From assembly GCA_964408285.1 (NCBI GenBank), contig CAYOYV010000011.1, positions 1 to 59,582 of the forward strand: 59,582 nucleotides of DNA, written 5' to 3'. Below the pieces are notes generated by a model. The model did not search any database and was not told the origin of the DNA. It saw only the letters and a program-made list of their open reading frames with translations. This document shows positions 11,455-43,438 of this stretch, piece after piece. The position numbers and the translations under genes are program-made. How positions within the stretch are numbered: the stretch's first letter is position 1; each line of letters starts with the position of its first letter. This DNA is from an uncultured Nitrososphaerota archaeon (lineage in GTDB: Archaea; Thermoproteota; EX4484-205; JAAOZO01).

Positions 11455-12897
11455 CTATATCCACCATTCCCTGCCGTGGAGGAATCTCAGGATAAACTCT
11501 GCACCTTCCTTTGATCGAGAAATAGACAAGACGCCTTTTCCTGCTGCTATCTCTGATTTCTTGATTGCTCCAACGCTTTCCTCCGGCATTCCCCCGAGGA
11601 ATCTGGCGTCGCTCAAGGCGTGCAACAAGCTTCTCCTAATGCTAAACGTATCTCGTTTCAGCAAAAGGCACCATCTTCCATTCCTCATGAATGGCCCGGA
11701 TACCAACCTAGCATCTCTGCCGTATTTCGACAGGAATATCTCCGAGTTCGCATAATCGGTCACTGGCGGCCCTTCGTGCACGTCAACCATTGGTAGCTCG
11801 GTGGTCTCGATGGCGATCAGCACTAGGGCTTCGCGTTTTTCATCGGTCCAATCAGCTGATCTTATTACGTCATAGCCTGATTCCAAGAGCTTTGTCTCGA
11901 ATCTCTTTCTGATCCTATGGAGTTGACCCCAGATTATGTCAGGGGGTTGCTTCCATGCTGGCAATCTAAGCGCGACGGCTTCTATGCGAGATCTGTTCAC
12001 GTTCTGCAGAACCTTCCTCTTCACCTCACTCGAAATCTTGGCTCGAGAGAAAAATCGCTCAGAGGGCCTCTGAAGGAATCTCCTGGACGCCCAGATAAAG
12101 GTGTGTAAACTCTCTTCAGAAACGGCAGAGGCGACGTTTCTTTCTGGATCGATTGGATCCACCACAACGAAACTAGAGTTGAACTTGGCGGAAATCTCCT
12201 CTGGTGTTCTTCCATCATAATGTGCCTTCAGATCGATGATCAACAGTGTCTTCAATTCCGACAGTGCTTTCAACACGCCAGTGAAGCTCTTGAAGTGAAT
12301 GACAAGCAATTCACACAGGAATCCGCTGAATCCTCCTGTCTTTATCTCGGCACCATATCTGCCTATGCCTTTCATGAAGGCTTTGAGCAACCTCGCTTCA
12401 TCCTTCAATCTGTCATCGCAACTCTCTTGGATGAACTCAGTGTGATATATTGTCCTGTCAGTTGCGGATTCCCATTTTGTTGGCTGTACTTTGAAGCATG
12501 GCACGACATCTATCCCAAGGGGACCGAGATTGACGGTGACGTAGGGGTGTTCCGCATACCTCAGAACGCTGTTACTATCTCCGAAGATCTTGATGGTTTC
12601 CTCAGTTAGTATGTTGCCCATTTCTTCCTTCGAGTATCTCACTGGGAAGAGAACGAAGATATCCGCCTCGGCTTCGGTACTTATCCAAGTGTCTTTGGCC
12701 AAAGAGCCCTCGAGCCTCACTTCTAGCTCACCATCGATTTCACGAAAGCGATCCGTTATCCTTCGGATTGCAGAATCAACAGCGTCGCCTATGAATCTCC
12801 TCCTGTTGATTCCAGGCTTTATTCTCTTCAGGACGTTTGAGAGAACTACCTGCTGCAGCTCCTCCAAGGGTTTTGACCTCCCTATGTGCTTTCGCAT
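11455..12897 (-). CDS. cca: Class I CCA-adding enzyme
   Basis: GSLAKDTW..EADIF, YAEHPY, DVVPC, SATDRT, GGFSGFLCELL and DPIDPERNVASA. Confidence 0.95.
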   Translation of the reverse strand: MRKHIGRSKPLEELQQVVLSNVLKRIKPGINRRRFIGDAVDSAIRRITDRFREIDGELEVRLEGSLAKDTWISTEAEADIFVLFPVRYSKEEMGNILTEETIKIFGDSNSVLRYAEHPYVTVNLGPLGIDVVPCFKVQPTKWESATDRTIYHTEFIQESCDDRLKDEARLLKAFMKGIGRYGAEIKTGGFSGFLCELLVIHFKSFTGVLKALSELKTLLIIDLKAHYDGRTPEEISAKFNSSFVVVDPIDPERNVASAVSEESLHTFIWASRRFLQRPSERFFSRAKISSEVKRKVLQNVNRSRIEAVALRLPAWKQPPDIIWGQLHRIRKRFETKLLESGYDVIRSADWTDEKREALVLIAIETTELPMVDVHEGPPVTDYANSEIFLSKYGRDARLVSGPFMRNGRWCLLLKRDTFSIRRSLLHALSDARFLGGMPEESVGAIKKSEIAAGKGVLSISRSKEGAEFILRFLHGREWWI

Positions 12898-38994: not shown

Positions 38995-39789
38995 ATGGAA
39001 GGGGTAATCGAACCCGGGGAATTCGTCAAAGTCCTGTTCGTAGATGGCAAGTCGTCTGTACAAAGGGTCAGAAAGGACGGGATCGAGACACACGATGGAG
39101 GGGTCAAACTCAGCGAGACGGAGAAGATGAGATTCGGTACTGTTGTGGAGACAAACATCGGCAGGAAACTGACATTAGTGAAGCCAACGCTTTCGGATCT
39201 CGTTTCAAGGATAGCTAGGAGGACTCAGGTGCTCTATCCTAAGGAGGTGGGATACCTGCTGCTCTCTCTCGACATAGCGCCCGGGTCATTGGTTTTCGAA
39301 GCGGGAACCGGAAGTGGAGTGTCAACCGCGTACATCGCCAACATCGTGAGGCCGAGCGGCAAGGTCGTATCCATGGATGTCAATGAAGAATCGGTTGAGA
39401 TAGCTAGGAAGAATCTCTCCTTGCTCGGGCTTTCGGACTACGTGGAGCTGAGGTTGGGCGATGTTGTAGGAGGGGTGCCTGAGAGGAACCTCTTCGATGC
39501 AGCGGTGATGGATCTTCCATCGCCATGGGAAGCGAGTCGAGCCTTCTGGAACCTCCTGAAACCATCGTCCCGAGTTGCTGTCGTCATCCCAACCTATAAT
39601 CAGTTGGAGAAAACTGCTACATCTCTAGAGGAAGCTGGCTTCTCGGTCTTGGACTGTGTCGACATTTCGGTCCAGGGAATCAGGGTCAAGAAGGGGGCAG
39701 TCAGGCCGTTGCCATTCTCAAGAACTCATAATGCCTTTCTGATGTTTGCCGCGAAGGTTCTAACAAGGGACCAATGGAGCAAAAGTTAA
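38995..39789 (+). CDS. trmI: tRNA (adenine-57/58-N1)-methyltransferase
   Basis: RRTQVLYPKE, EAGTGSG, DLPSPW, VRP and H-x-x-F motif. Confidence 0.9.
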   Translation: MEGVIEPGEFVKVLFVDGKSSVQRVRKDGIETHDGGVKLSETEKMRFGTVVETNIGRKLTLVKPTLSDLVSRIARRTQVLYPKEVGYLLLSLDIAPGSLVFEAGTGSGVSTAYIANIVRPSGKVVSMDVNEESVEIARKNLSLLGLSDYVELRLGDVVGGVPERNLFDAAVMDLPSPWEASRAFWNLLKPSSRVAVVIPTYNQLEKTATSLEEAGFSVLDCVDISVQGIRVKKGAVRPLPFSRTHNAFLMFAAKVLTRDQWSKS

Positions 39790-39816: not shown

Positions 39817-40374
39817 ATGCAGGAGAAGGCCAAGGAAACCAACACATTCACTGTTCTCGCCAATGGAATGCTCTATCTTTCCATCTTGGTGATTATTGCT
39901 TCAATCTCTGTCTTTGGCTTTGAGGGATACCTTAACAATGCGATCTTGGTCTATTCATCGCAACTCCTACTTCTGCTTTCAACCATGATTCCCTTCCTCC
40001 CCCGCGACAACGAATCCTTCAGTAGGCTCTTCAATAGAAGCGCAGGAGGCTTGTTGATCTTCTCTCTGCTTTCAGCCCTCGAGCTGATATACTACTCGAG
40101 ATTGAAGACCTCGACCCTGTTGGCGAGTCTAGGGATGGTCGCTCTGTTCGGCTTCTCTTCCTATAAGGCAGTTCTCATAGGGCAGAAGAGGGCATATGGT
40201 CGCGAGATGCTGGACCTGCTGGGAGCTGGCCTCACTGCTTTCGGGGCCGTACTGCAAGCGTTTGCAAGTAGATTCAGCGTTCAGCAAGCTAACACCATAG
40301 GGTTCTTTGGCATCCCGCTTGTCATTCTTGGCCTAGCTATGCTTTTCTATTCTAGGTTCATGCTCAAACGCTGA
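39817..40374 (+). CDS. Hypothetical six-TM membrane protein
   Basis: About six hydrophobic segments; no motif recognised. Confidence 0.6.
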   Translation: MQEKAKETNTFTVLANGMLYLSILVIIASISVFGFEGYLNNAILVYSSQLLLLLSTMIPFLPRDNESFSRLFNRSAGGLLIFSLLSALELIYYSRLKTSTLLASLGMVALFGFSSYKAVLIGQKRAYGREMLDLLGAGLTAFGAVLQAFASRFSVQQANTIGFFGIPLVILGLAMLFYSRFMLKR

Positions 40375-40466
40375 TTCTGATACGGATTTCTTGAATCGGC
40401 CTAATCCAAGGATCCGAGATAATCGAGACTTATGTCGTTTAAAACCTAGAAATCTTTGGCTAAGTC

Positions 40467-40474
40467 TTATTAAA
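40467..40474 (+). promoter_or_regulatory. Putative TATA box for the downstream candidate ncRNA
   Basis: TTATTAAA about 25-30 nt upstream of the closing helix at ~40498. Confidence 0.5.
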
Positions 40475-40496
40475 CAAATCCGGCCCGATTCTCATG

Positions 40497-40752
40497 TCGC
40501 CCCTGCCGGGGGATATCGGGCTCGGAGTTGTCGCCTGAAGAGGCAACTCTTGAGACGCCTCTCTGCATGAATGGGGATCGAAGTCCAACGATGTCTGGGT
40601 CTCCAGGGATTGGGCATAGAAACCGAGGAGACATGATCGCCCTGGGACAACGATCTCCAAGGGTGTCTGGGCACCGGACGTCGCGATTGGGTGAAACAGG
40701 GCGTGCGAAGACGGGATAACCCGGAAGCCCGAACCCAAATGGCAGGGCGTCA
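40497..40752 (+). ncRNA. Candidate stand-alone ~260-nt structured ncRNA, family not recognised
   Basis: Nested long-range helices 40501-07/40741-47, 40516-22/40726-32 and 40555-60/40699-704; hairpins 40525-49 and 40712-23; upstream TATA and downstream T5; overlapping ORFs look spurious. Confidence 0.7.
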
Positions 40753-40761
40753 TTGGTTTTT
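40753..40761 (+). terminator. Putative archaeal oligo-T terminator
   Basis: TTGGTTTTT immediately after the closing helix. Confidence 0.4.
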
Positions 40762-40857
40762 CCTACAAATTGGACAGCAGAGAATGCACTCTTCCCTCGC
40801 TCTGCCGGCACCAGTAGAGTTAAAGACCCAAAAGACTGCCATGATCCTCGATCGTGA

Positions 40858-42081
40858 TTGCCGAAATTCTTTGTCGACATGCACCTTCATTCGAAGTATT
40901 CGGTTGCAACCAGCGAGATCATGGATCTTGAGCATGTCTCACATTATTGTAGATTCAAAGGCCTTGACATAGTTGCGACTGGAGATGTTCTGCACCCGCG
41001 ATGGCTGTCAGAACTGAAGAACAAGCTTCAGGAAAATGAAGGGCTTTTTTCAATGAGGAATGAAAGACCGATGCCCTTCTTCATACTTTCTGGCGAGATA
41101 TGCACAATCTATCAGTTGGAGGGAAAAAGGAGAAGGATACACCATGTTCTGCTATATCCGTCATTCGATTCAGTCGAACAAGCATCGGACGTTCTGGCAA
41201 GGCATGCCGATCTCAGTTCGAATGGTAGACCTTTTGTTTCCCTTAATCCAGAGGACCTAGTATCACTAATCCGCAGCGTGGACGATGGAATCGAGGTATT
41301 CCCAGCCCATATATGGACGCCTCACTTCAGCATTTTCGGACTGCATGGCCATTCATCGGTGGAAGAAGCCTACGGGTCAAACGCAAGTCGCATCCATCTG
41401 ATGGAAACAGGTCTTTCCTCTGACCCTGAGATGAATTGGTCGCTTTCTTCGTTGGACCGATTCAAGCTTGTATCCAATTCGGATTCGCACTCCCCGTATC
41501 CATTCAGAATCGGCAGGGAGGCCAGCCTCTTCGAATTGCGAGAACCTAGCTATGGCTCGCTCCTTGACGCGATCAGGAACGGTGGAGCCTCTTCACTGCT
41601 AATGACGGTCGAAACATTTCCCCAATATGGGAAATATCACTGGCCCGGCCACAGGTCATGCAGTTTCTCGGCGTCTCCAGAGGAATACGTCAGGCTTGCT
41701 GGCCTCTGCCCGGTCTGCAGAAGGAAACTGACAAATGGCGTTGAACTAGAGGTGAGAAAAAAGGCCGACAGACCAAGGGGTTACATTCCGGAAGGAGCAA
41801 AGCCATTCTTCAGGGTCATCCCGCTATCTGAAATCCTATCCATGATCTCAGGATCTCCGGTTGACTCAACAAAGGTTTGGAATCTTTACGACGGATTGGT
41901 CAAGCGCTTTGGCAATGAGTACTCGATTCTTCTTTGGGCTCCAATACGGGAGCTCGATGAAATCGGAGGGAAAAGGCTTGGCAGCCTGATAAGAAAGATG
42001 AGACAAGGCACTCTAGAGATAAGACCCGGATACGATGGCAAATATGGGGAATTGATTGAGACATCGAATTGCTGCCGGTAG
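40858..42081 (+). CDS. endoQ: Endonuclease Q (PHP domain plus zinc finger)
   Basis: DMHLHSKYS, PAHIWTP, ETGLSSD, SNSDSHS, GKYH...C..C...CPVC and PGYDGKYG. Confidence 0.9.
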   Translation: MPKFFVDMHLHSKYSVATSEIMDLEHVSHYCRFKGLDIVATGDVLHPRWLSELKNKLQENEGLFSMRNERPMPFFILSGEICTIYQLEGKRRRIHHVLLYPSFDSVEQASDVLARHADLSSNGRPFVSLNPEDLVSLIRSVDDGIEVFPAHIWTPHFSIFGLHGHSSVEEAYGSNASRIHLMETGLSSDPEMNWSLSSLDRFKLVSNSDSHSPYPFRIGREASLFELREPSYGSLLDAIRNGGASSLLMTVETFPQYGKYHWPGHRSCSFSASPEEYVRLAGLCPVCRRKLTNGVELEVRKKADRPRGYIPEGAKPFFRVIPLSEILSMISGSPVDSTKVWNLYDGLVKRFGNEYSILLWAPIRELDEIGGKRLGSLIRKMRQGTLEIRPGYDGKYGELIETSNCCR

Positions 42082-42097
42082 AATCCTTGAATGGGCC

Positions 42098-43438
42098 CTA
42101 AAGCTCGAAAATGAGTGGCTTGAGGCCCTTAGGAATGAATGTAACGTTCTTTGGCGAAGGCCTTGTTCCAAGCTCAACTGTTCTCTCCGTAGCGTCGAGG
42201 ATGATCTTCATCACGTCAGTTCCGTTTATTCTGCCAAGTGCTCCACTTGCAGCTTGACGTTCGGAAAAGACCTTCGTGTCATCCCTTCTGATTCCCGGTG
42301 ATGCGAGCAAGAGAGGAACTGGCTCTCCAGAGTGCATGCCTCTGTCACATGGTGTTGTATGGTCGCCTGTCAAGATGACGGACAGCGTTCTAAGTAGGTC
42401 AGACGGAATGAGGCATAAATTTTCGTCCACCTTCGATATGAATCTTGACTTCCCCAACGCGTTCTTGTTGTGGGAGAAGTAGTCGGTCGCTTTTATGTGG
42501 AGGAACACGAAGTCGTGAGTTCCTAGCGCGTGAACCGCAGCTTCGAACTTCCCCTCAAGATTCGTATTGGGCATTCCGTTAGCCCCTTCGACTTCTATGA
42601 AATCCATTCCCACGGCTTTTGCCACTCCTTTGTAGAGGGCTCCTCCAGCAATGGCAGCAGCATGGAAGCCGAATTTCTCGTGGAAGCCGGGCAGCTTCTT
42701 GGCAACACCCGATCCCCTGAAGAGCACAGCGTTAGCGACTGGTCTGCCTGAGTGCTTTCTCTGCTCGTTCAGATCGGCCTTGGAAAGCGCTCGCATCGCC
42801 TCTATCTCCCATCTGTTCATAACTGAGGCGAGTCTTCTCGCGCCATCTGCATTTCTGGCCTCTTGCCTTTGTTGGCATTCCAGCATTGGTGCGCCCTCCT
42901 CATGTGGATCGTTGTCCGTTACTTCGTACGATAATCCCTCGCCACTGACTGTCAATGCCATCCTGTGTTCCGTGAGCCCGTATGATCTGAAGCTACAACC
43001 ATCCACCTCGGGAACCTCTTCGTTCAGGATATCTACCAGATTCTTGGTTTCCTGTGTCGATATCCTCCCTGCCCTTCTATCGACCACCATCGCCATGTTG
43101 TTCGCAAGTTTGACTGTTGCTAGGTTGGCCCTGAACGCTATTTCGTTCTCGCCAAGGACGACTCCTTCTCCGAGGGCCTCGATGGGTCCCCTTCCGAAAT
43201 ACTCTTTCTCCAAGTCATAGCCCAATATAGCCAAATGTGATGTGTCGCTTCCAGGGGGGACTCCTGGCGATATAGGGTCCATCAATCCCTGAGCACCAAT
43301 CTTCTTCAGCCTCTTCATATTCACCTGTCTTGCCGCTTCCAGGGGAGTTCTTCCTCTGAGCCCGGGAGCTGGATGGTCTCCAAGCCCGTCTAGAATAATC
43401 AGAATGCACTGTCCGGACCTATCCATATTCACTCGCAA
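42098..43438 (-). CDS. apgM: 2,3-bisphosphoglycerate-independent phosphoglycerate mutase
   Basis: ILDGLGD, PGSDTSHL, GRGPIEA, DRRAGRI, HIKATD and TGDHTTP. Confidence 0.94.
   Translation of the reverse strand: MRVNMDRSGQCILIILDGLGDHPAPGLRGRTPLEAARQVNMKRLKKIGAQGLMDPISPGVPPGSDTSHLAILGYDLEKEYFGRGPIEALGEGVVLGENEIAFRANLATVKLANNMAMVVDRRAGRISTQETKNLVDILNEEVPEVDGCSFRSYGLTEHRMALTVSGEGLSYEVTDNDPHEEGAPMLECQQRQEARNADGARRLASVMNRWEIEAMRALSKADLNEQRKHSGRPVANAVLFRGSGVAKKLPGFHEKFGFHAAAIAGGALYKGVAKAVGMDFIEVEGANGMPNTNLEGKFEAAVHALGTHDFVFLHIKATDYFSHNKNALGKSRFISKVDENLCLIPSDLLRTLSVILTGDHTTPCDRGMHSGEPVPLLLASPGIRRDDTKVFSERQAASGALGRINGTDVMKIILDATERTVELGTRPSPKNVTFIPKGLKPLIFEL

Follow-up and report, generated by a model that had tools for sequence, protein, structure and literature searches.

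A conserved structured RNA of uncultured Thermoproteota is probably released as a circle from a bulge–helix–bulge precursor

The window studied here, the whole 59,582-nucleotide (nt) contig stretch CAYOYV010000011.1 from an uncultured Nitrososphaerota archaeon, carries on its plus strand an RNA gene whose product we place at 40515-40738. That this is a real, conserved structured RNA gene is close to certain; the RNA matches no described family, and the family itself appears to be new. The best overall explanation, which we judge likely, is a stand-alone gene whose transcript is excised at a motif of the bulge–helix–bulge (BHB) type, closed by the ligase RtcB and folded into a four-arm circle. 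An initial annotation of this DNA had proposed a stand-alone, separately promoted, structured non-coding RNA of an unnamed family on the plus strand, and that much is upheld by the lack of a match in Rfam and by homologues with covariation. What it missed is the main point, the reading of the terminal helices as a BHB processing site and of the product as circular.

Seven public sediment metatranscriptome runs, from two studies, contain part of the window, and we aligned the contigs of four of these runs (covering both studies) to 40300-40950. Contigs in all four continue from 40738 to 40515, going back 224 nt, a joint that is absent from the window's genomic DNA. It falls at the positions predicted by the BHB motif, with cuts after nucleotide 2 of each bulge; two letters fit either side of the joint, which may therefore lie up to 2 nt further on. 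Two joint-bearing contigs are 254 nt long, which we read as 224 nt plus a 30-nt word overlap, the length expected for a 224-nt circle if the assembler used, as we presume, 31-letter words. Leader, trailer and neighbouring genes are left uncovered by the contigs, and the uncovered parts prove nothing. Because the contig joint matches the motif-predicted cut sites, we take the mature RNA to be a 224-nt circle, and a BHB-processed circular mature form is very likely. The extent of 40497-40752 given by the initial annotation thus holds for the precursor and overshoots the mature RNA, which the joint confines to 40515-40738. The elements of the motif, in order, are:

40501-40508, plus strand: outer helix P1 (h of the BHB motif), 5′ strand, in the proposed removed leader; eight adjacent pairs with 40740-40747
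40509-40512, plus strand: central helix P2 (H of the BHB motif), 5′ strand GGGG, which would be lost with the leader; pairs with 40733-40736
40513-40515, plus strand: 5′ three-nucleotide bulge AUA; predicted cut 40514/40515, circular joint begins at 40515
40515-40738, plus strand: proposed mature circular RNA, 224 nt, from the contig joint in metatranscriptomes
40516-40522, plus strand: inner helix P3 (h′ of the BHB motif), 5′ strand UCGGGCU; pairs with 40726-40732
40726-40732, plus strand: P3, 3′ strand AGCCCGA, from alignment pair counts
40733-40736, plus strand: P2, 3′ strand ACCC; after circularisation it would be part of a 7-nt loop ACCCAA+A capping P3
40737-40739, plus strand: 3′ three-nucleotide bulge AAA; predicted cut 40738/40739, circular joint ends at 40738
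40740-40747, plus strand: P1, 3′ strand, in the proposed removed trailer; pairs with 40501-40508

The terminal helices thus have the hBHBh′ form, for which the available excerpts of the literature require a central helix H of 4 base pairs (bp), bulges B of 3 nt and flanking helices of more than 2 bp (PMC3978253, PMC7714728, PMC4731332). The nested helices of the initial annotation, CCCTGCC/GGCAGGG (40501-07/40742-48) and TCGGGCT/AGCCCGA (40516-22/40726-32), are both present. Cutting after bulge nucleotide 2 is the canonical position of such sites in general. An example from the same genome is tRNA-Ala(GGC) on contig C15, in which nucleotides 32-35 pair with intron CCAA and the bulges are cut after nucleotide 2 at the 37/38 intron boundaries given by ARAGORN; this is the same geometry, and the same cut position, as the observed joint of the RNA.

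The genome encodes one RtcB (560.7 bits), on contig C15, and two EndA-family genes (105.3 and 67.6 bits), on contigs C4 and C8. ARAGORN reports only 21 tRNA genes in this genome, which is 94% complete, 13 of them with predicted introns; it is probable that many others are split or hold introns of a non-canonical kind. It found no tRNA gene in the window.

BLAST of the region against 41 relatives gave a single weak partial match, at the syntenic place in genome G002, and covariance models were therefore needed. A two-sequence model (R1) matched 7 of 61 genomes, and a seven-sequence model (R2) matched 16 of the 26 genomes of the window's order; 12 sequences and a hand-corrected structure went into the final model (R3). 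A strict three-block pattern occurred in 24 of 26 genomes of the window's class, once in each, with no matches for a reversed control pattern; it was derived from family members and is thus not an independent test, and the class as sampled consists of this one order. The strict pattern also recovered members of genus g6 that the R2 whole-genome search had missed. Together with genome G004, found by covariance model, this places the RNA in 25 of the 26 genomes of the class, at one copy each. Genomes G009 (82% complete), G027 and G051 gave no match, which does not imply absence.

The family extends beyond the window's class. Among 401 genomes of the phylum, a relaxed three-block pattern matched 48, half of which (24) do not belong to the class; three of the outside matches (L076, L077 and L078) were scored with the model, and G185, of another class, was confirmed as real. 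R3 gave full-length matches in 3 of 23 genomes of G185's order, and matches in 9 of 151 genomes of this second Thermoproteota class (one of them, G498, false, leaving eight genomes with the RNA) and in 21 of 151 genomes of a phylum sample, namely all 20 own-class genomes and G128. Searches over more than 40 genomes used strict filters that drop weak matches, so that no match there is not absence; R2, run over 151 genomes with these filters, missed the known G185 copy and is uninformative on absence. Genome G483 gave partial matches only (12.7-16.9 bits). In metagenomes, a pattern scan returned 40 loci, of which 28 are R3 members at 64-212 bits, and the sole organism name among the matches was 'Thermoproteota archaeon'. 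No description of such an RNA was found in a search of full article texts, which does not prove it unpublished; the supplementary tables of circular RNAs in PMC3326292, PMC7714728 and PMC12918454 could list a related circle.

The rejected G498 match scored 24 bits and lies inside an open reading frame. The look-alike is a hairpin at 1501-1538 of locus L089 with the same loop motif GAAUGGGCGUCGAAA, a chance resemblance.

The existence of a structured RNA is carried by covariation. An R3-based alignment (A8) holds 28 full-length rows and one false partial row (29 rows in all), with 69 pairs in 14 helices. Standard pairs are formed in 89.3% of its pair cells, against 63.0 ± 0.8% in shuffles; 60 of the 69 pairs show changes on both sides; and the covariation score of 0.570 compares with 0.180 in shuffles, none of 500 of which reached it, and with 0.07-0.15 when partners were slid by 1-3 columns. 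The highest-ranked column pairs of a separate mutual-information scan were mostly pairs of the model, and many G–U pairs are compatible with the plus strand only. A MAFFT alignment of all homologues (A5) was out of structural register in arms B and C and was excluded from the counts. Covarying homologues across archaeal genomes, for which the initial annotation had proposed a search, were found, with strong covariation. Folding energy alone decides nothing: the plus strand folds at −111 kcal/mol, compared with −96.2 ± 4.9 for dinucleotide shuffles (z −3.0; none of 200 shuffles was as stable), and the minus strand is nearly as stable (z −2.85), so that existence is settled by the homologues and covariation. 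A single-sequence circular fold of the 224-mer gave z −2.1 and did not reproduce the consensus arms.

In the consensus, P1 is followed by P2 (GGGN/N′CCC), then P3 and then a four-way junction with arms A, B and C:

40523-40565, plus strand: arm A, a hairpin with the GNRA tetraloop GCAA at 40543-40546; its outer five pairs all covary
40566-40665, plus strand: arm B, a long irregular hairpin; B0 40566-68/40663-65, B1 40573-80/40651-58
40583-86/40645-48 and 40599-40607/40623-32, plus strand: inner helices B2 and B3 of arm B, respectively, in the consensus model
40608-40622, plus strand: loop B, GAUUGGGCAUAGAAA, with UGGGC..GAAAC, the most conserved element of the RNA family
40666-40725, plus strand: arm C; C1 40666-71/40720-25, C2 40674-76/40712-14, C3 40681-85/40704-08
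40691-97, plus strand: GUGAAAC in the terminal loop of arm C, from the sequence

All nine pairs of P1 change on both sides across the family, with many rows gapped, and P3 is paired in 99.4% of cells, with changes on both sides in five of six counted pairs. Arm A is capped by GAAA, GCAA or GUAA in most A8 rows. In arm B, helix B1 is 98% paired and all five of its pairs covary; lower B3 is only 66% paired, and bulges shift its register between lineages. The helices of arm C are paired in 94% (C1), 93% (C2) and 91% (C3) of cells, again with changes on both sides. Arm B ends in a terminal loop of 14-15 nt, GA-YUGGGC-NN(A)GAAA. Conservation across 11 or more of the 12 lineage groups is almost confined to 5′ GGG.A, the UGGGC..GAAAC of loop B and 3′ CCCA.A.

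This fold revises much of the initial annotation's structure. Its local hairpins CGGG-ATAA-CCCG, GTCTGG/CCGGAC and GATCGC/GCGATT, and its helix ACGCCT/GGGCGT, give way in the family consensus to the long-range helices C1 (UCUGGG/CCCGGA), C2 (CCG/CGG) and C3 (UCGCG/UGCGA). The hairpin GAGTTGTC/GGCAACTC competes with the GNRA-capped hairpin AGAG-GCAA-CUCU, which is the one that most homologues retain. The motifs ATAGAAAC (40616-23) and GTGAAAC (40691-97), thought to flank one branched subdomain, are where they were reported, as are the TATA-like box and T5 tract, yet they lie in the terminal loops of the separate arms B and C.

Across the family the BHB motif is kept with variation. The three G–C pairs of P2 (GGG/CCC) occur in 27-28 of the 28 rows; its fourth pair covaries, being UG in 14, UA in 8, CG in 2, AU in 1 and another combination in 3, with a standard pair in 25 of the 28. 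In 27 parsed homologues (G002 was mis-parsed at the 3′ site) the bulge sequence is A-D-R on the 5′ side and A-R-N on the 3′ side. P1 has 6-11 adjacent bp in 11 of 27 homologues, is shifted by 2 nt in G006 and G185, and is long in all eight second-class members, counting G185 with its offset. The window has the strict BHB form; many relatives have a relaxed form only. Predicted circle sizes span 194-231 nt. According to the accessible parts of PMC6379350 and PMC7714728, relaxed BHBs require the broad-specificity (αβ)2 endonuclease, which is found in this superphylum. Most precursors of genus g6 and those of g2 would need such a relaxed-specificity endonuclease because their P1 has only 0-3 bp.

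The boundaries of the precursor can be read from flanking elements on the plus strand:

40467-40474, plus strand: TATA-like box TTATTAAA, ~42 nt 5′ of the central-helix GGGG, from the sequence
40757-40761, plus strand: T5 tract, which probably ends the precursor as an archaeal terminator, from the sequence

From the box we infer a transcription start near 40497. In families f1 and f3 and the second class, A-T-rich boxes precede the GGG by 37-43 nt, and in genus g6 by ~30 nt; the g6 leader is predicted to be too short for P1 because of this shorter spacing. Runs of T follow the RNA in many homologues. A scan for bacterial-type promoters and terminators found nothing, as expected for an archaeon.

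On the proposed route, a gene that has both a TATA box and an oligo-T terminator of its own would yield a precursor that the tRNA-splicing endonuclease would cut at 40514/40515 and 40738/40739, after nucleotide 2 of each 3-nt bulge, and RtcB would join the ends, releasing the body as a covalently closed circle. Topologically the body would be the BHB 'intron' and the discarded leader and trailer the 'exons'. The circle would fold as four arms on one junction, namely P3 with a 7-nt loop N′CCCAR+R and arms A, B and C. In the precursor the CCC would be paired to the leader GGG; removal of the leader would free CCCAR, which could then make a kissing contact with YUGGG in loop B and so fix the RNA in a compact fold.

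This last step draws on the complementarity of the CCCAR loop to YUGGG(C) of loop B, with a proposed pairing of 40610-40614 with 40734-40738. UGGG and CCCA are invariant in 28 of 28 rows, and the flanking Y:R pair is UA in 12, CG in 11 and another combination in 4, with UA and CG both occurring within the window's class. In 13 further distinct metagenome sequences, which are relatives of known members and not independent events, the Y:R pair is standard in 11; the search pattern had left both positions unconstrained. A kissing loop would account for the double use of one CCC and for the invariance of GGG, CCC and UGGG even though recognition by the endonuclease is structural. We favour a circularisation-dependent kissing loop on these grounds, with less assurance than the circle itself.

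Several observations weigh against the maturation and fold proposed here. The joint was read from assembled contigs with 95-99% identity to the window, not from reads of the same strain; the contigs show neither strand nor abundance, DNA can occur in RNA libraries, and a tandem duplication in a DNA variant might conceivably be the source of the joint. Action of EndA and RtcB on this RNA is inferred from gene presence. The window's own fourth P2 pair is a G.A mismatch, and P1 has 0-3 bp in genus g6 (10 of 11 inspected) and genus g2, leaving a relaxed motif there. A8 was fitted to the model structure, which biases its pair counts in favour of that structure, and a metatranscriptome variant, 40669 G>A, breaks a C1 pair and is uncompensated. 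The kissing helix consists of invariant bases and one covarying pair, with mismatches in 4 of 27 cases in A8 and with counts inflated by kinship. Finally, few nucleotides outside the BHB motif and loop B are conserved, which gives no handle on function.

As to cellular role, our best guess is a very stable protein-binding scaffold or a housekeeping ribonucleoprotein RNA of these lineages. A bolder and decidedly tentative idea is that it is a third lineage-wide housekeeping structured RNA beside RNase P RNA and signal recognition particle (SRP) RNA, and obligately circular. In that case cutting by the splicing endonuclease and joining by RtcB would be the switch that matures a ribonucleoprotein or ribozyme of unknown kind, CCCAR docking on loop B only after both steps, and its substrates might be tRNA or tRNA-like.

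The initial annotation had instead likened the loops to the specificity domain (S-domain) of RNase P and suggested tRNA binding, and a double T-loop-like RNA that binds tRNA is an unlikely but conceivable function of the circle. In the double T-loop module that docks the tRNA elbow, the excerpted text of PMC3664808 gives AG..A and UG..A as the conserved cores, and the family f1 loops AGAAA and UGAAA/UUAAA follow the same 5′-to-3′ order. The RNase P RNA of the same genome carries ACAGAAAU and GUUGAAAA, and a GCD14/TrmI-like tRNA methyltransferase gene lies two genes 5′ of the RNA in eight of nine own-class loci examined. However, two T-loop pentanucleotides with these cores were found in f1 only and not family-wide. 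The first A of loop B is missing in families f2 and f3, in genus g6 and throughout the second class, where the loop has NNGAAA, frequently CGAAA. In the second class loop C is not conserved (GUAA tetraloop, GAUAAA, GAGAAA, GGGAGCC), the RNase P-like GTGAAAC loop being kept only in the window's class and replaced in the second by loops of GNRA or other types. The kissing pair accounts better for the centre of loop B; ATAGAAAC is the 3′ part of a 14-15-nt loop whose YUGGGC centre is complementary to CCCAR, and the methyltransferase neighbour is missing from second-class loci. Lack of conservation of the UGAAA loop beyond the window's class makes the tRNA-elbow idea a weak one.

An origin of the joint in assembly or library making, with the RNA being an ordinary linear small RNA (sRNA) of ~255 nt, is quite improbable. 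The use of contigs rather than raw reads and the two-letter microhomology at the joint would fit an artefact, but the joint is identical in four of four runs from two studies, falls on both positions of an independently defined motif whose geometry is kept in 27 homologues, and stands in two contigs of the length presumed for a 224-nt circle.

The genes around the RNA bear on a further possibility, that it is a cis-acting leader or excised intron of the mRNA of the gene 3′ of it, with the circle a functionless by-product. The neighbours in the window are:

38995-39789, plus strand: GCD14/TrmI-like tRNA (m1A58-type) methyltransferase gene (PF08704, 96.8 bits)
39817-40374, plus strand: open reading frame of 185 amino acids (185-aa), flanked by the methyltransferase gene and the RNA and unmatched in Pfam and NCBIfam
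40858-42081, plus strand: gene for a 407-aa TIGR00375-family protein (161.6 bits, under the curated cut-off of 326.6; no Pfam match)
42098-43438, minus strand: cofactor-independent phosphoglycerate mutase gene (PF10143, PF01676)

The own-class gene order is the methyltransferase, a small gene without family match, the RNA and the TIGR00375-family (PHP-type) gene. Homologues of the 185-aa reading frame occupy the same place in f1, and a different 200-aa reading frame stands there in g6. In two classes the RNA has the TIGR00375-family gene next to it; this gene shares the strand of the RNA in the window's class and is convergent with it in G185 and G239. Other neighbours in the second class are a Rad3-type helicase, replication factor A, and KaiC-like, IF-2B, metallo-beta-lactamase-fold and DUF402 genes. 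No transposase-type gene was seen among the two to four flanking reading frames at 17 loci, 22 of these frames having been scanned against Pfam or NCBIfam. No neighbour gene points to the function of the RNA.

A leader or intron of the TIGR00375-family mRNA would fit the position of the RNA in f1 (g1 and g3), f2 and g6, where it precedes that gene by 53-106 nt on the same strand, and BHB introns in 5′ untranslated regions are described for Haloferax in the available part of PMC7714728. Against it, genus g2 retains the RNA at 189-198 bits, with the TIGR00375 gene found in none of three g2 genomes (85-88% complete) and a phosphoglycerate mutase homologue directly 3′ of the RNA in its place. The TIGR00375 gene of G185 and G239 is convergent, 10-17 nt from the RNA end, and the neighbours at other second-class loci are unrelated to it. 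A T-tract lies 3′ of the RNA, and the excised body, not the leader or trailer, is conserved and covarying. Because its neighbours differ between lineages, the RNA is not the leader of one gene, and we consider this possibility very remote.

Known RNAs were sought with Rfam 15, at gathering scores for the whole window and at a permissive E≤10 for 40380-40860 read linearly. The former gave no match and the latter three at chance level, none of them RNase P or SRP RNA. Neither the RNase P RNA model RF00373 nor the archaeal SRP RNA model RF01857 matched the linear window RNA at gathering scores or at E≤10; a GAAGUCC-like stretch is not conserved, and none of the P4, CR-I or CR-V elements of RNase P is found in the window RNA. 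As the initial annotation had recommended, the canonical RNase P and SRP RNA genes of the genome were located, and both lie on other contigs: RNase P RNA on C15 (175.3 bits; gathering 84) and SRP RNA on C18 at 11628-11938 (locus L002; 85.6 bits, E 7e-20, model positions 1-317). The RNA at 40515-40738 is therefore an additional RNA and not a replacement for either. The SRP RNA on C18 is full-length and under the gathering score of 96.5 bits, so that it would escape automatic annotation.

A divergent or circularly permuted RNase P or SRP RNA restored by circularisation is hardly credible, since, despite the precedent of a permuted SRP RNA in Thermoproteus with a leader–trailer BHB and a promoter 26 nt upstream (in the excerpts of PMC4731332) and the short RNase-P-like motifs of the window (ACAGAAA-like, UGAAA, AUGAAUG), both canonical RNAs are full-length on other contigs, no local match to either appeared at E≤10 in the linear 40380-40860, and neither GAAGUCC nor AUGAAUG is conserved in homologues.

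A stand-alone gene making a BHB-excised circle thus remains the explanation that we prefer, and it would depart from what is known of such circles. Circular RNAs made through BHB motifs are already known in archaea, and they are intermediates or rearrangements of understood RNAs, namely rRNA, introns of tRNAs and an SRP RNA in permuted form; as a family, the RNA described here appears new. Here a dedicated gene, conserved in two classes of uncultured Thermoproteota, apparently exists only to make an intricately folded circular RNA. If this is true, it would add a new structured RNA class in a domain with very few known, widen the substrate list of the tRNA-splicing machinery and provide a natural case in which circularisation alters the tertiary fold and does not merely protect ends. 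The compact motif might also be useful for circular RNA engineering with archaeal BHB scaffolds.

Comparison with known systems places the RNA more precisely. In the excerpted accounts of circular C/D box sRNAs and circular omega RNA isoforms, these too are small archaeal non-coding circles (PMC9014305, PMC12558985), and circularisation of the C/D box sRNAs depends on the ligase Rnl and not on a BHB (PMC9014305). The window RNA, in contrast to both, is single-copy and syntenic, and no C/D boxes were seen by eye in the homologue alignments, no dedicated motif scan having been made. With the RNase P specificity domain and double T-loop module, as excerpted from Lehmann et al. 2013 (PMC3664808) and Zhang & Ferre-D'Amare 2016 (PMC4810234), f1 members share the order of AGAAA- and UGAAA-type motifs and a multi-arm junction with a GNRA-capped arm; unlike in that module, the motifs of the window RNA lie in two separate hairpin loops and are not conserved family-wide.

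The processing itself has closer parallels. Intermediates of pre-16S and pre-23S rRNA and tRNA introns are described, in the accessible parts of Danan et al. 2012 (PMC3326292), PMC7714728 and PMC12918454, as likewise having a BHB of 4 bp and 3-nt bulges and being circularised by endonuclease and ligase. Those circles are intermediates or discarded introns, whereas the window circle would be the only conserved product, its 'exons' being unconserved. The closest parallel is in Thermoproteus, whose circular SRP RNA (Plagens et al. 2015, PMC4731332) also comes from a stand-alone non-coding RNA gene, with a promoter ~26 nt upstream and a leader of 23 nt (~18 nt here), leader and trailer forming a BHB in both cases. 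Cleavage there is by the tRNA-splicing endonuclease, with RtcB as the proposed ligase, and yields a stable structured circle, the same route that we propose here. The Thermoproteus RNA is a permuted SRP RNA whose known fold the circle repairs (PMC4731332), whereas the window RNA belongs to an unknown family, has no permutation and coexists with a normal SRP RNA elsewhere in the genome; in it, unlike in the Thermoproteus RNA, circularisation would free a loop for the proposed kissing contact.

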